This document shows, piece by piece, positions 376 through 5,835 of a stretch of DNA of 5,835 nt. A program made the position numbers and the translations under genes. The stretch lies in IMG/VR virus record IMGVR_UViG_2671180758_000004; one strand, 5' to 3'. The stretch's first letter is position 1; every line of letters begins with the position of its first letter. The stretch comes from a virus. Lineage: Duplodnaviria; Heunggongvirae; Uroviricota; Caudoviricetes. The notes under the pieces are model-generated. The model ran no database searches. It saw nothing but the letters and a program-made list of their open reading frames with translations, and had not been told where the DNA came from.

Positions 376-393
376 AGCTTTGTTGATTAGCTA

Positions 394-612
394 CTAACGC
401 GGGTATGTAATCATTCTGGCAATGCTTAATGCCGCTGCTTTTTCCAGATTGGTGATATCCTGCTCCAGAGCGGACAGATTTTCAGCCTGCTTAGCTCTGG
501 CTTCATTGGCCCATTTCAGATCCTGCGCTGCATTAATTTTCTGGTGCATCCACTCATAAAGTTCATCATCGGTATAGTCTGGCGCGATGATGACGGGTTC
601 TCGTTTCTGCAT
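394..612 (-). CDS. ydfC: YdfC-like small protein (72 aa), Qin dicB-operon type
   Basis: 72-aa ORF with GAGGA-type RBS upstream of the ATG at 612..610. Size and position (between the ydfB-like gene and the DicF leader) match the ydfA-ydfB-ydfC-dicF-dicB-ydfD operon order as I recall it. Confidence 0.75.
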   Translation of the reverse strand: MQKREPVIIAPDYTDDELYEWMHQKINAAQDLKWANEARAKQAENLSALEQDITNLEKAAALSIARMITYPR

Positions 613-1080: not shown

Positions 1081-1272
1081 TTAAAGACCTGCCGGGATTT
1101 CGTTATTATCCTGGTGAATAACTTTATCGACCGGGTAACAGTTACCGGGAATTTTCTGTTCGGTTGCTGCAGTCACACACTCCTGCATTGTCCTGTGAAC
1201 ACTGACTGCAATATCAACTGGCTCTCCGGAAACAAGAAAAACTGTCAGAACAAGTGCAAATGCTGTATTCAT
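1081..1272 (-). CDS. ydfD: YdfD-like small lysis protein (63 aa) with N-terminal hydrophobic segment (MNTAFALVLTVFLVSG...)
   Basis: 63-aa ORF starting at ATG 1272..1270, which overlaps the dicB stop as ATGA (translational coupling). N-terminal hydrophobic helix. Size and position after dicB match ydfD. The longer 81-aa track ORF (to 1326) would overlap dicB and is less likely. Confidence 0.7.
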   Translation of the reverse strand: MNTAFALVLTVFLVSGEPVDIAVSVHRTMQECVTAATEQKIPGNCYPVDKVIHQDNNEIPAGL

Positions 1273-1457
1273 TGCCAGCATCCTTTTTGTATCGGACGTA
1301 AACGGGCCAGCATTGAAAGAATGCATATTTTATTTAATAGCTCCCGTTCGTGTTTTCTCTTGTTAATGGCATCTTCAGTAAATACAGGGTTACTGATAGT
1401 GACACCAATTTCAAAACAACCTTCAGACGTATTAACGTTTGGTAATAACGTTTCCAT
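1269..1457 (-). CDS. dicB: DicB cell-division inhibitor (62 aa)
   Basis: Translation METLLPNVNTSEGCFEIGVTISNPVFTEDAINKRKHERELLNKICILSMLARLRPIQKGCWQ closely matches my recollection of E. coli DicB. GAGGA RBS 7 nt upstream of ATG 1457..1455. The 97-aa track ORF is an upstream in-frame extension with no RBS. Confidence 0.9.
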   Translation of the reverse strand: METLLPNVNTSEGCFEIGVTISNPVFTEDAINKRKHERELLNKICILSMLARLRPIQKGCWQ

Positions 1458-1626
1458 TATCGCGTCCTCAACAATGAATTTTGTGATGTGGTGCCTGGTG
1501 CCTCCAGGTGACGTTAACCAGTTAACAATTAACGCCGGATACAGAGAATCCACCCATAACACTGTTTTTGGTTTTAACTGTTCCGCGTGCGCTCAGCCGC
1601 ATTCACCGCATCACAAAATTCACTTT

Positions 1627-1684
1627 AAAAACGGCGGCAGAGCAGTCACGGAGTAAAACTGATACCGCCAAACGTCACCAGAAA
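1627..1684 (-). ncRNA. dicF: DicF antisense sRNA, copy 2, complete with intrinsic terminator (GC-rich hairpin then U-tract = complement of 1627..1631)
   Basis: Minus strand 1684..1627 reads UUUCUGGUGACGUUUGGCGGUAUCAGUUUUACUCCGUGACUGCUCUGCCGCCGUUUUU. It lies between a ~320-bp leader and dicB, as expected for DicF. The exact 5' end (RNase E processed in the known system) is approximate. Confidence 0.8.
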
Positions 1685-2604: not shown

Positions 2605-2838
2605 TCAGTCAGTGTTTCTGGTTAACCAGCGACGCGCGCCAGCTTCAGTTTTAAACGTTTTGCTTCTGGTATATGTCATCGCGGTAAACGTGCCGTCCTG
2701 GTTGGGAAACACGCCGCATACCAGAGATTCGTTGTTGCCAAGCTCGATAGTATCCATGCTGACCTCATTTCCCCTTAACGCCGGGGTAGCGGAACAAAAA
2801 CCTGCTGCATAGTTATTAAAGTTGAACCCTGCCGTCAT
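2605..2838 (-). CDS. ydfA: YdfA/YdaF-family (DUF1391-like) small protein, copy 2; 77 aa from ATG 2838, or 50 aa from internal ATG 2757
   Basis: Paralogue of 772..1008 with 6 amino-acid differences plus a divergent C-terminus. First gene downstream of the predicted early-left promoter, the position ydfA occupies relative to dicA in Qin. Confidence 0.7.
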   Translation of the reverse strand: MTAGFNFNNYAAGFCSATPALRGNEVSMDTIELGNNESLVCGVFPNQDGTFTAMTYTRSKTFKTEAGARRWLTRNTD

Positions 2839-3054: not shown

Positions 3055-3474
3055 TTAAGAGGCTTTTTGTTTTTTCTTTCGTGCTAACTCTTCGTAAATT
3101 GCATTGTACTTCTGTTTTTTCTCTTCAAGAGTTTTTAAAAGTTCATCTGTCTCACTGTCAGGGAGCTCGTCCAGAAGGTCAATGATGATTTTTTGTCTTG
3201 GATTTAACTCCTGATAGAAACGTACCTGTCCACTTTCTTCTGTATCCTCTCCCAAAAGATAGGTTGGTGTTGTTCCTATTAGTGTTGCTAATTCCCTTAA
3301 TTTCTCCCGGCGAGGAATTGTTTCGCCATTAAACCATTTGCTAACCGCTTTTGGTGTTAATTTCATTCGACGGGCAATTTCTGCCTGCCTTCCATGTTGT
3401 TCATAACCAGCATTTTCACAGGCTAGCGCAAGCCTACTGGCGAACTCTTTACGCGCTTTATCTTCATGAACCAT
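3055..3474 (-). CDS. Prophage repressor, XRE-family HTH (RacR/DicA-like, 139 aa), no S24 peptidase domain apparent
   Basis: N-terminal HTH-like segment (QAEIARRMKLTPKAVSKWFNGETIP), charged C-terminal helix, AT-rich codon usage. Divergent from a Cro-like gene and upstream of a dicB-type operon. Weak RBS, consistent with repressor genes. Confidence 0.85.
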   Translation of the reverse strand: MVHEDKARKEFASRLALACENAGYEQHGRQAEIARRMKLTPKAVSKWFNGETIPRREKLRELATLIGTTPTYLLGEDTEESGQVRFYQELNPRQKIIIDLLDELPDSETDELLKTLEEKKQKYNAIYEELARKKKQKAS

Positions 3475-3553: not shown

Positions 3554-3808
3554 ATGAACCAGAAAACACTTGAAGATGTAATCAAAACTGTTCGCGTTGC
3601 TGTTGTGGCCGACGTTTGTGGTGTCAGCCAAAGAGCAATCTATAAATGGATGGATAACGGAAAATTGCCTCGCACAGAATATACCGGCGAAACAAATTAC
3701 GCTGAAAAAATCGCTCTTGCATCAAACGGATTATTTTCTGCCGATGCAATTTTAACTATTGGCAGGAATAAAACTACTACGAAAAAGCTGATGGGAGTTG
3801 ATTCATGA
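3554..3808 (+). CDS. ydaS: Cro-like HTH protein (YdaS-like, 84 aa)
   Basis: ATG 3554 with GAGGG RBS at 3545..3549. HTH-like segment VADVCGVSQRAIYKWMDNG. Divergent from the repressor. Its stop overlaps the next start as ATGA. The 108-aa track ORF from 3482 would begin inside the repressor start region without an RBS. Confidence 0.75.
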   Translation: MNQKTLEDVIKTVRVAVVADVCGVSQRAIYKWMDNGKLPRTEYTGETNYAEKIALASNGLFSADAILTIGRNKTTTKKLMGVDS

Positions 3809-4230
3809 AAATCAAGCATGAACACATCCGCATGGCGATGAATGCCTGGGCGCATCCGGACGGCGAAAAAGTACCGGCTGCGAAAATTACCAAAGCATAT
3901 TTCGAGCTGGGAATGACGTTCCCGGAACTGTATGACGACAGCCATCCGGAAGCCCTGGCTCGCAATACTCAGAAAATTTTCCGCTGGGTGGAGAAAGACA
4001 CCCCTGATGCGGTTAAAAAAATTCAGGCGTTGTTACCAGCTATCGAAAAAGCAATGCCACCTCTGCTGGTGGCCCGAATGCGCAGTCATAGCTCAGCCTA
4101 TTTTCGGGAACTAGTGGAGACGCGGGAACGACTGGTGAGAGACGCTGATGATTTTGTCGCAGTGGCGATCGCTGGTTTCAACCAGATGAATCGTGGTGGC
4201 CCTGCAGGAAATATTGTGGCTGTGCATTGA
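3805..4230 (+). CDS. ydaT: YdaT-like protein (141 aa), CII-position gene of the Rac-type module
   Basis: ATG 3805 overlaps the ydaS-like stop (ATGA). Size and position match ydaT as I recall it. Sequence-level identity to K-12 YdaT is from memory and unverified. Confidence 0.7.
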   Translation: MKIKHEHIRMAMNAWAHPDGEKVPAAKITKAYFELGMTFPELYDDSHPEALARNTQKIFRWVEKDTPDAVKKIQALLPAIEKAMPPLLVARMRSHSSAYFRELVETRERLVRDADDFVAVAIAGFNQMNRGGPAGNIVAVH

Positions 4231-4301
4231 CTCGCAATATTCATACCGGATCACTTCCGGCAATTTGTGAGTAAAAAGATTCGGTATCAAAAGAGGTGAG
4301 T

Positions 4302-5372
4302 ATGGCTAACGCCTGGCTCAGATTATGGCATGACATGCCAAATGACCCTAAGTGGCGAACAATTGCCAGGGTGTCAGGGCAGCCAATTGCAACAGTGATG
4401 GCAGTGTATATCCACCTCCTGGTGAGCGCGTCACGAAATGTCACGCGAGGTCACATTGATGTCACGACAGAAGATTTGGCAAGTGCGCTCGACGTGACAG
4501 AAGAGGTAATTGATTCAATTTTGCAGACGATGCAGGGGCGGGTACTTGATGGTGATTTAATCACTGGATGGGAAAAACGCCAGGTGCTTAAAGAGGACAA
4601 CGGCAATATTTCGCAAACCGCAAAATCTCCTGCAGAGCGCAAGAGGGCGCAGCGAGAGAGGGAAAGAAAGCGGGAACAAAATGGCGATTGTCACGGCGCG
4701 TCACGAAATGTCACGCACATGTCACGACGAGTCACGACAGATAAAGATACAGATAAAGATACAGATCAAGAAGATCAAAACACTATGGTCCATGGCGTAA
4801 AAAACGCCACGAACCAGGCAGGGGATGTTCAGACCGTCAATCCTGGTCAGCCAGCAGGCACGACACCGGAAGCCGATTCAGCGTATGCGCTGAAAGCCGA
4901 TTCGGGCGCTGTGCAGCAGGTGATGACCGCAAGGCCGGAGCAATCACACCAACTGCAGCAGCCCGAAGCCGATTCCGCCATTCAGCGGGAAGCCGATCGG
5001 GTAGTCCCGGAAAACACCGGTCAGTCTGTGGGACGAGTGGATTATCCGGATGTGTTCGAACAGGTCTGGCGGGAGTACCCGTTGCGTGCCGGAGCAAACC
5101 CGAAGAAATCCGCTTTCAGTGCCTGGAAGGCCAGATTACGCGAGGGGGTGCCACCAGAGGCCATGCTGGATGGCGTGAGGCGTTACGCAAGATACTTGGC
5201 GGCTACCGGGAAAGCGGGAACGGAATTTGTTCAGCGAGCGACGACGTTTTTTGGACCGGACCGGAATTTTGAGAACCCCTGGTTTCTCCCGGTAAGCGGC
5301 ACGAACAACCAGCGTTGTGTGAATCATATTACTGAACCGGATAACGAAATTCCGCCGGGCTTCAGGGGGTAA
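4302..5372 (+). CDS. ydaU: YdaU-like phage replication initiator (lambda O-like role), 356 aa, with a low-complexity central linker
   Basis: ATG 4302 with AAGAGG RBS (4291..4296). Two iteron arrays and an AT-rich tract lie inside the coding sequence, as for ori-lambda inside gene O. Central region is charged and repetitive (ERKRAQRERERKRE, DKDTDKDTD, PEADSA repeats). Confidence 0.8.
   Translation: MANAWLRLWHDMPNDPKWRTIARVSGQPIATVMAVYIHLLVSASRNVTRGHIDVTTEDLASALDVTEEVIDSILQTMQGRVLDGDLITGWEKRQVLKEDNGNISQTAKSPAERKRAQRERERKREQNGDCHGASRNVTHMSRRVTTDKDTDKDTDQEDQNTMVHGVKNATNQAGDVQTVNPGQPAGTTPEADSAYALKADSGAVQQVMTARPEQSHQLQQPEADSAIQREADRVVPENTGQSVGRVDYPDVFEQVWREYPLRAGANPKKSAFSAWKARLREGVPPEAMLDGVRRYARYLAATGKAGTEFVQRATTFFGPDRNFENPWFLPVSGTNNQRCVNHITEPDNEIPPGFRG
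4426..4466 (+). repeat. Iteron array 1: four GTCAC(G/A) repeats in helical phase (4430, 4440, 4450, 4461), plus an inverted copy at 4493..4498
   Basis: Direct repeats spaced 10-11 bp. The 21-mer GCGCGTCACGAAATGTCACGC (4426..4446) is repeated exactly at 4696..4716. Confidence 0.8.
4690..4790 (+). other. Putative prophage origin of replication: iteron array 2 (five GTCACG repeats at 4690, 4700, 4710, 4721, 4731) followed by an AT-rich tract with tandem GATAAAGATACA x2 and two GATC sites
   Basis: Perfect 10/10/11/10-bp phasing of five identical hexamers. Adjacent AT-rich tract with GATAAAGATACA at 4740..4751 and 4752..4763 and GATC at 4764..4767 and 4773..4776. Architecture parallels ori-lambda inside the initiator gene. 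Confidence 0.7.
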
Positions 5373-5412: not shown

Positions 5413-5835
5413 GTGGCAAAAGTTTTTACACAAGAAGAGCGGGAAAAAATTAAAGGGCTGATCGTGGAATTCGTACGCCTTAACGGACGAGGCACGATTC
5501 GGCAGTTATCGGATGAAATTGGTGTCAGTCATGCGTCTGTCGGTCGTTTATGCATGGAGCTGGCCGCCAGTGGTGATGTTTACAATTCCGGTTACGGAGT
5601 ATTCCCGTCTGAGCAGGCGCGCAAGGACTGGCAAAACGCCCGCAAAAAACTCTCAAGGGCAAAGCTGAAGAAACCATCTGTGGTTGATCCGGACCTTATC
5701 TGGCTATTACCAGACGGCGAAATACGCCGCTACGACAGGCGCCTAAACATAATCTGTCGCGAGTGCCGGAAGAGCGAAGCTATGCAGCGTGTACTGGCAT
5801 TTTATCAAGGAAATGTTAGGTATTTTAGACGTTAC
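5413..5835 (+). CDS. Hypothetical protein with putative winged-helix/HTH segment, 5' portion only (ORF runs off the right edge); occupies the position after the initiator gene
   Basis: Open frame from GTG 5413 to the window end (141 codons, no stop). AGGAGG at 5403..5408, 4 nt upstream. HTH-like segment IRQLSDEIGVSHASVGRLCMELAASGDV. No Walker A motif in the visible part, so not obviously DnaC-like. Confidence 0.55.
   Translation, partial: MAKVFTQEEREKIKGLIVEFVRLNGRGTIRQLSDEIGVSHASVGRLCMELAASGDVYNSGYGVFPSEQARKDWQNARKKLSRAKLKKPSVVDPDLIWLLPDGEIRRYDRRLNIICRECRKSEAMQRVLAFYQGNVRYFRRY

Follow-up and report, generated by a model that had tools for sequence, protein, structure and literature searches.

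We analyzed a 5835-bp stretch of Caudoviricetes DNA (IMG/VR record IMGVR_UViG_2671180758_000004; hereafter the window) and propose, with a probability of roughly 0.7, that its positions 4426 to 4816 form the replication origin of a lambdoid (Qin/Rac-like) prophage, located inside the gene of its own initiator. Most likely, this is an in-gene origin in the style of phages lambda and SPP1, with an auxiliary cluster of iterons upstream. The proposal builds on what could be observed directly: the architecture of the sequence, its conservation across relatives, purifying selection at the DNA level, and the concerted change of two iteron arrays.

The element is composed of a short direct repeat, GTCAC(G/A). 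Expected hexamer counts and shuffles were computed over the whole window, where GTCACG occurs 11 times versus 2.42 expected, a count attained in 0 of 200 shuffles, and GTCACR occurs 13 times versus 4.96 expected. An earlier note on this DNA had described nine such hexamers in two arrays (four plus five copies) at 10 to 11 bp spacing, and our counts and coordinates bear this out (Table 1), with copy-to-copy spacings of 10/10/11 bp in array 1 and 10/10/11/10 bp in array 2. The same note had pointed to an exact 21-bp unit shared by both arrays, to tandem repeats and two GATC sites following array 2, and to repeated peptides in the linker; all were found, and we take the identity of the 21-bp unit to be a sign of recent sequence exchange between the arrays. 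It had overlooked three features: a tenth copy of the iteron, in inverted orientation, an inverted repeat 3' of the A+T-rich tract, and the concerted change of the iterons in both arrays. Array 1, whose copies fall in reading frames 2, 0, 1, and 0, codes for amino acids 43 to 55, which are the end of predicted helix 29-45 and the loop/strand that follows it. The inverted copy codes for D64-V65-T66, at the turn of the predicted helix-turn-helix just before helix 67-77. Array 2 (gene nucleotides 389-435; copies in frames 1, 2, 0, 2, and 0) codes for amino acids 130 to 145 in a linker predicted to be disordered, and is our proposed core site for initiator binding in the origin. Two copies each of the peptides ASRNVT and VTT are present in the initiator protein.

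Table 1. Coordinates of the proposed origin, its initiator gene, and the neighboring genes in the window
Feature	Position	Strand	Detail
Replication initiator gene ('phage replisome organizer')	4302-5372	+	356 aa; phrog_3729
Predicted N-terminal winged-helix domain, coding region	4302-4595	+	aa 1-98
Exact 21-bp unit	4426-4446 and 4696-4716	+	GCGCGTCACGAAATGTCACGC; found in both arrays
Iteron array 1	4430-4466	+	GTCACG at 4430, 4440, 4461; GTCACA at 4450
Single inverted iteron copy	4493-4498	-	CGTGAC on the plus strand; tenth copy beside the nine forward GTCAC(G/A)
Iteron array 2	4690-4736	+	five GTCACG at 4690, 4700, 4710, 4721, 4731
A+T-rich, purine-rich tract	4737-4785	+	proposed DNA-unwinding element; directly 3' of array 2
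Inverted repeat	4786-4798/4804-4816		TGGTCCATGGCGT / ACGCCACGAACCA; 13-nt arms, 5-nt gap; right of the A+T-rich tract
C-terminal tail, coding region	5298-5369	+	GTNNQRCVNHITEPDNEIPPGFRG; matches the C terminus of host primosomal protein DnaT
cI-like repressor gene	3055-3474	-	profile matches
Cro/YdaS-like gene	3554-3808		profile matches
YdaT/CII-like gene	3805-4230		profile matches
DUF977/Ren-like gene	from 5413 (5413-5835 in the window)		directly after the initiator gene

The tract adjoining array 2 contains 2.9 tandem copies of ACAGATAAAGAT (4737-4771) and GATC sites at 4764-4767 and 4773-4776. The lowest-GC 40-nucleotide window of the gene lies here (4741-4780), with a GC content of 0.25 and a purine content of 0.75 on the top strand, and array 2 and the tract together code for amino acids 130 to 161 of the predicted disordered linker. 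We considered whether the GATC sites are tied to Dam-positive hosts, and the association was not clean, as GATC is also present in one Pseudomonas and one Sphingomonas locus. The earlier note had further named a near-consensus DnaA box just upstream of array 1. The string TATCCAC is indeed present at 4409-4415, but its reading as a DnaA box did not hold: the context 9-mer at 4408-4416, ATATCCACC, has two mismatches to TTATCCACA and is not within one mismatch of TTWTNCACA, matches of this kind number 15 in the window versus 12.9 expected, which is chance level, and the homologues in Pseudomonas and Aeromonas phages (L003 and L004) do not conserve the site.

To place the window among its relatives, we relied on a scan of one genome per species, which yielded 52 loci from gamma-, beta-, and alphaproteobacteria, and scored them by anchored motif counts, which replaced a noisy automated 'top 6-mer' scan with imprecise region boundaries. 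Relatives of at least ~65% identity carry GTCAC at gene nucleotides 129/139/149/160 (+), 193 (-), and ~387-430 (+), and the same gene positions of arrays and inverted copy recur in Escherichia coli, Pseudomonas, Aeromonas, Bordetella, Acidovorax, and other relatives. The four array 1 positions are kept in ~25 relatives; the inverted copy at 193(-) is found in most class-A relatives and is missing in class B. Merely 1 to 10 GTCAC copies, both strands together, occur in the ~4.4 kb of flanking DNA per locus. Neighboring copies are set 10 bp apart in 159 of 240 cases and 11 bp apart in 38. The N-domain (~70% nucleotide identity) is fused to unrelated C-domains in phages of Pseudomonas and Aeromonas, whose homologues retain array 1, the inverted copy, array 2, and a GATAAAGATA tract. 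YdaT-, Cro-, cI-, and DUF977-like genes were detectable in 5, 1, 3, and 2 of 54 loci, respectively, and the arrays travel with the N-domain rather than with the neighboring regulators.

The layout downstream of array 2 is likewise shared. In 43 loci, array 2 (three to six copies) directly adjoins the A+T-rich tract, and the 40 nucleotides that follow it have a mean GC content of 31% versus 55% for the gene; the lowest-GC window begins -10 to +40 nucleotides from the end of array 2 in 38 of the 43. The family as a whole is enriched in inverted repeats ~45 to 60 nucleotides past array 2 (score 15.6 versus 12.4 in control windows, p = 8e-9), which are usually G+C-rich and present in most loci. 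Array 2 together with the tract is the lambda-like core of the layout. A recurrent AGATCTAAA(A) ends the tract in L004, L008, L014, L023, L027, L028, L045, and L001 (Rac ydaU), from several unrelated hosts; the right end of the tract in the window has GATCAAGAAGATCAAAA in its place.

The iterons of the two arrays change together. In distant relatives, the core becomes GTAACG/GAAACG or CGAACG, jointly in both arrays. The dominant types of array 1/array 2 were GTCAC/GTCAC in 27 loci, GAACG/GAACG in 12, GTAAC/GTAAC in five, none/none in six, none/GTCAC in one (L039), and none/GAAAC in one, so that the types matched in 44 of the 44 loci having both arrays, with no discordant locus. Placed in register, the cores GTCACG, GTAACG, and CGAACG have a common right half (AACG/CACG); GTCACG and GTAACG differ by one base, and GTAACG and CGAACG by two. 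Array 1 has gained copies in L006, L028, and L038 through in-frame insertions, all into the same loop. An 11-residue loop insertion in L045 (Sphingomonas sp., gene from 1494), ETTGNAGVTQG, is encoded by DNA nearly identical to array 2 of the same locus (GTAACGC type), next to a leftover CGAACGC-type copy, as though array 2 had been pasted in. The earlier note had raised the possibility that the two arrays mark an internal duplication, with array 2 and the linker as an insertion. The homologues contradict a recent duplication or insertion of this kind: the arrays are ancient, because gamma- and betaproteobacterial relatives carry both of them at matching places in the gene, and where one array is missing, it is array 1 (L039).

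In L046, L054, L047, and L049, the N-domain is joined to other C-terminal sequences, and these loci have neither an origin-like tract nor either of the arrays. In L046 (a Serratia metagenome-assembled genome) and L054 (Pantoea sp.), the N-domain continues right after the wing into YVYYV...GISRNPWAR..., with no iterons and no A+T-rich tract; this C-terminal sequence is possibly akin to a GIY-YIG/T5orf172-type domain. The converse combination is seen in L137 (Shigella phage 75/02 Stx, 1894-2982), where a C-domain of the window's type sits on an unrelated N-domain. There, versus 0.17 copies expected, GGGGCTTC occurs twice in the part coding for the N-domain (2080 and 2091), and an inverted copy stands in the linker (2332), where a purine-rich (GAACAG)n tract comes right after it. 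L137 keeps the inverted repeat past the tract, both sides of the loop-closing pair being changed, and its initiator gene is followed by a DnaC-like gene.

The conserved positions of the arrays reflect more than the protein they encode. In 22 class-A genes, normalized synonymous-codon entropy was 0.20 under array 1 and the inverted copy versus 0.84 in the other conserved codons (Mann-Whitney, p = 1.7e-6). Codons V47 (GTC), T48 (ACG), G50 (GGT), and V54 (GTC) were each invariant in 22 of 22 genes, H51 (CAC) in 21 of 21, and V65, under the inverted copy, was GTG in 19 of 19, while the spacer codon R49 used four different codons. This test is independent of the motif search, in which the iteron fell into reading frames 0, 1, and 2 in 147, 96, and 93 instances, respectively. 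Because synonymous codons are frozen under the motifs and the motif occurs in all three frames, these patterns show that purifying selection acts on the nucleotides themselves, not on the peptide.

The protein aligns over its full length with phrog_3729 ('replication initiation protein'; E 2.9e-256). Although the open reading frame listing gives a GTG start at 4296, we adopted the ATG at 4302, because homologues open with MAN(A/S)WLRLW and AAGAGG lies 6 to 7 nucleotides upstream. Close relatives are named 'phage replisome organizer' or 'DnaT-like ssDNA-binding domain-containing protein' by NCBI. A Pfam search of the protein at E <= 0.01 returned no match, neither to DUF1376 nor to the lambda O family; below that level, residues 5-123 aligned with positions 1-119 of the 121 in PF09681 at 15.9 bits (cut-off 23.3), and TIGR01714 matched at 15.4 bits (cut-off 49.8). 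In the AlphaFold2 model, which is confident for amino acids 11-90 of the N-domain, helices at 4-14, 16-25, and 29-45 precede a helix-turn-helix (56-63 and 67-77) and a β-hairpin wing (78-87), an order of elements by which the modeled domain qualifies as a winged helix. Its shape was nearest to the DnaD N-terminal domain and to transcription-factor winged helices. The loop/strand at 46-55 was of lower confidence, the linker (~amino acids 99-246), which is poorly conserved as protein, was disordered, and the C-domain was helical with moderate confidence. The C-terminal tail (ending ...EPDNEIPPGFRG) aligned with residues 73-96 of PDB 6aep (primosomal protein 1; E 0.0075), the sole match in a PDB sequence search of the initiator, and with positions 156-179 of the 179 in the NCBIfam DnaT model (E 0.002, far under the family cut-off).

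From this arrangement, we infer the following mechanism. The winged-helix N-domains of the initiator would bind the hexamer iterons, and with one site per helical turn, the bound monomers would be aligned along a single face of the double helix at both arrays. The duplex would then open at the A+T- and purine-rich tract adjoining array 2. The short inverted repeat would bound the unit on its right, giving the left-to-right order of ori-lambda, which also has an inverted repeat (palindrome) to the right. Array 1 and the inverted copy, ~260 bp upstream in the sequence coding for a surface loop of the DNA-binding domain, would serve as a second cluster for the same initiator; array 1 most likely joins array 2 through oligomerization of the initiator, looping the DNA between them, so that the initiation complex is built or regulated. 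Recruitment of the host's helicase-loading proteins is presumed to fall to the C-domain with its DnaT-like tail, because no loader gene adjoins the initiator gene: neither a P-like nor a DnaC-like gene was seen in the window or beside the initiator gene in phage Tritos. The similarity of the tail suggests that the phage captures these host proteins by mimicking the tail of DnaT.

Several points weigh against this proposal. In the searchable literature, we found no binding, unwinding, or autonomous-replication evidence for the initiator family. The iteron core is a direct repeat of just 6 to 7 bp, unlike the 19-bp symmetric iterons of lambda, and the mode of binding is therefore conjectural. 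The Pfam, NCBIfam, and PDB sequence matches of the protein are all below curated thresholds. Array 1 is not indispensable, because L039 has array 2 only and L030, L032, and L043 have only degenerate iterons. Counted by hand between the final copies of the two arrays, the distance ranges from 249 to 339 bp and is not helically phased across relatives. Finally, the conserved recognition helix is unchanged between iteron classes, which leaves the variable half of the iteron without an evident reader.

Thirteen protein columns discriminate the GTCACG from the CGAACG clade (31, 45-48, 51-53, 55-56, and 65-67), of which 11 (45-48, 51-53, 55-56, and 65-66) correspond to codons lying under array 1 or the inverted copy, and the remaining two are 31 and 67; the clades do not differ in the wing or at helix positions 68-77. 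It is conceivable, though we think it rather doubtful, that the sequence-reading residues of the initiator and its binding sites are one and the same stretch of DNA, forming a self-referential specificity module. If the loop/turn residues read the variable half of the iteron, any iteron change would automatically rewrite the reading head, and the specificities of origin and initiator would switch together, inseparable by recombination. Alternatively, the protein may possibly read only the half that the iterons share, with the loop merely permissive.

Array 1 might instead lie outside the firing of the origin, which would consist of array 2 and the A+T-rich tract, and act as a control site for the same initiator, either by titration or handcuffing, which would restrain initiation, or as a roadblock or site of autoregulation in its own transcript region. 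We consider this unlikely. It would account for the retention of array 2 in the absence of array 1 in L039, for the variable, unphased distance between the arrays, and for the extra inverted copy that array 1 has and array 2 does not. On the other side, array 1 with its frozen synonymous sites is kept in nearly all members that have array 2, and an insertion has restored it in L045, with L006, L028, and L038 having an enlarged array; positive and negative roles of array 1 are inseparable by sequence data. A second possibility, which we judge improbable, is that array 1 is functionless and persists through gene conversion from a selected array 2 that overwrites a permissive, loop-coding segment. 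The exact 21-bp identity between the arrays of the window and the near identity of the L045 loop insertion to that locus's own array 2 are what such conversion would leave behind. However, the spacers of the arrays differ in many loci where the cores are kept (e.g., L003), which suggests that the cores are maintained independently; the positions 129/139/149/160 do not vary among lineages in which synonymous sites are otherwise near randomized, and both arrays are jointly absent from six loci without an origin-like tract.

We also weighed whether the repeats act on the antisense strand as a promoter (GTGACA resembling the -35 element TTGACA, possibly activated by a CII/YdaT-like protein) or as an mRNA structure that pairs the forward and inverted copies, and found this very improbable. 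A promoter-like match lies on the minus strand at 4714-4687, 4488-4499 is complementary over 12 nucleotides to 4720-4731, and the RNA fold of 4400-4830 has a z-score of -2.2. But such promoter-like matches number 2 versus 2.0 expected, classes with a CGAACG core keep the arrays without any resemblance to a -35 element, just 5 of 54 loci have a YdaT-like gene, class B does without the inverted copy, and the local RNA fold reaches a z-score of only -1.2. We accordingly set aside RNA structure, both z-scores being weak, as well as an internal promoter or terminator, for which matches were at chance level; a known RNA family is likewise excluded, since an Rfam search of the window returned two DicF copies far upstream and nothing in the initiator gene. 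Sites for neighboring regulators are unlikely because the regulator genes are absent from most loci. That the repeats are selected as peptide, with SRNVT/VTT needed in the initiator, is scarcely credible: ASRNVT and VTT do occur twice each, but the hexamer codes for different peptides in its three frames (SR, VT, GH, and CH), the linker copies lie in a predicted disordered, poorly conserved region of the protein, and the frame and synonymous-codon analyses, with synonymous positions frozen, contradict selection at the peptide level.

Gene O of lambda has the origin at its middle, where an AT-rich tract follows the iterons, and in lambdoid phages extra iterons add residues to the initiator protein (PMC7466680). 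The proposed origin is like ori-lambda (lambda and the Stx phages P27 and 933W) in its location mid-initiator gene, at a similar position (iterons at nucleotides 389-435 here), where it codes for the linker between a DNA-binding N-domain and a presumed helicase-recruiting C-domain; in the sequence of iterons directly followed by an AT-rich tract with an inverted repeat on its right; and in the lengthening of the protein by extra iterons, here in L006 and L045. It differs from lambda in that the initiator has no Pfam O-family match and does not belong to that family, the iterons are 6- to 7-bp direct repeats with a 10- to 11-bp period instead of ~19-bp units with dyad symmetry, a second array and an inverted copy lie within the region coding for the DNA-binding domain, and no P-like or DnaC-like gene stands beside the initiator gene, whereas lambda O is partnered by the P loader. 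In SPP1, oriL consists of repeats in direct orientation together with an AT-rich unwinding element within gene 38, and gp38 binds two discrete repeat regions (PMC6316719). Like gp38 and kindred organizers of Gram-positive phages (PF09681), the initiator has relatives named 'phage replisome organizer', its end-to-end match to PF09681/TIGR01714 being sub-threshold, and direct repeats with an AT-rich element lie within the organizer's own gene. Unlike SPP1, in which oriL and oriR are separate origins ~13 kb apart and the loader gp39 and helicase gp40 are the phage's own, the two clusters here are 260 bp apart in one gene, and no such genes were seen beside it.

The earlier note had called the gene ydaU-like and likened the region to ori-lambda inside gene O. 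Iterons followed by an A+T-rich tract within an initiator gene, conserved in ~50 distant homologues, uphold the likeness to ori-lambda; the assignment to ydaU failed, as the protein lacks DUF1376, the domain of YdaU, and BLASTP against K-12 YdaU aligned only the last 19 residues (E 2e-05) and the low-complexity linker. The gene does occupy the ydaU slot, after ydaS- and ydaT-like genes, as in the K-12 Rac prophage with its oriJ, and shares with Rac YdaU a linker tract ...AATAAAGATACAGATAAAGATC... coding for TDKDTDKD and the C-terminal tail IPPGFRG. Unlike here, the N-domain of YdaU is a non-homologous DUF1376, the iteron sequence differs, and a DnaC-like ydaV follows ydaU. ydaU (L001, E. coli K-12 Rac, 3620-4477) has a short repeat of its own, RTGTTSAA; its 8-kb locus holds seven copies versus 2.2 expected, and six of these are within ydaU, two where the N-domain is encoded (3767 and 3852) and four where the linker is (4011-4078). 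Next come AATAAAGATACAGATAAAGATCTAAAAACAGATC and an inverted repeat, CCCCCCC..GGGGG. We regard this as a candidate oriJ layout with the same two-cluster design. The N-terminal domain of Firmicute DnaD has a fold similar to that of the initiator's N-domain at a sequence identity of only 9 to 10%; unlike the initiator, DnaD is a host scaffold protein that is not known to have binding sites in its own gene. Short direct repeats (8-9 bp) in two clusters, read by one initiator at about one site per helical turn, are also found in ori/crr of satellite phage P4 and in the low-affinity DnaA-box arrays of oriC; their initiators (the P4 α primase-helicase and DnaA) are unrelated, and the clusters are not known to lie in sequence coding for the initiator's DNA-binding domain.

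An origin inside the gene of a phage initiator is a well-known kind of element. In the searchable literature on oriJ, ydaU, DnaT-like phage proteins, and replisome-organizer origins, we found no description of the origin of this family, which is set apart from known examples by its very short iterons, one per helical turn; by a second cluster embedded in the sequence coding for the DNA-binding domain; by the strictly concerted change of both clusters across clades; and by a DnaT-like tail with no loader gene adjoining the initiator gene. The family forms a natural series of matched origin/initiator variants, with protein differences confined to about a dozen codons, and is thus a compact system for the evolution of origin specificity and for a binding site harbored by the sequence that encodes its own presumed reader domain. 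A DnaT-tailed initiator without an adjoining loader also suggests a route by which phages may capture host helicase-loading machinery. In practice, the layout can be used for annotating origins in many proteobacterial prophages and offers a candidate for that of Rac oriJ.

The initiator is 98 to 99% identical in the isolated phages Tritos, Evi, and vB_EcoS-689R5, and the origin region of Tritos is identical to that of the window. Of 5426 complete E. coli genomes, 2500 carry the replication module, which also occurs in isolated temperate phages; the NCBI pipeline still labels the gene "hypothetical protein" in the 20 such genomes listed. Two fragments of the gene, in L055 (a 1797-bp contig of a Collinsella metagenome-assembled genome) and in P0040 (named Staphylococcus saprophyticus), are 99 to 100% identical to the E. 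coli prophage gene, and their Gram-positive labels probably reflect contamination in assembly or binning rather than true host range.

In the left part of the window, Rfam identified two genes for the DicF small RNA, at 1-51 and 1632-1683 (both on the minus strand; 69.6 and 72.5 bits), which sit on a 300-bp direct duplication of 100% identity (1-300 and 1633-1932). A second duplication, 94% identical (784-1063 and 2614-2893), carries two DUF1391 genes (772-1008 and 2605-2838, minus strand), between which lie DicB (1269-1562, minus strand) and DUF1482 (1081-1326, minus strand). On account of the DicF and DUF1391 duplications, the immunity-left region of the prophage is partly tandemly duplicated.

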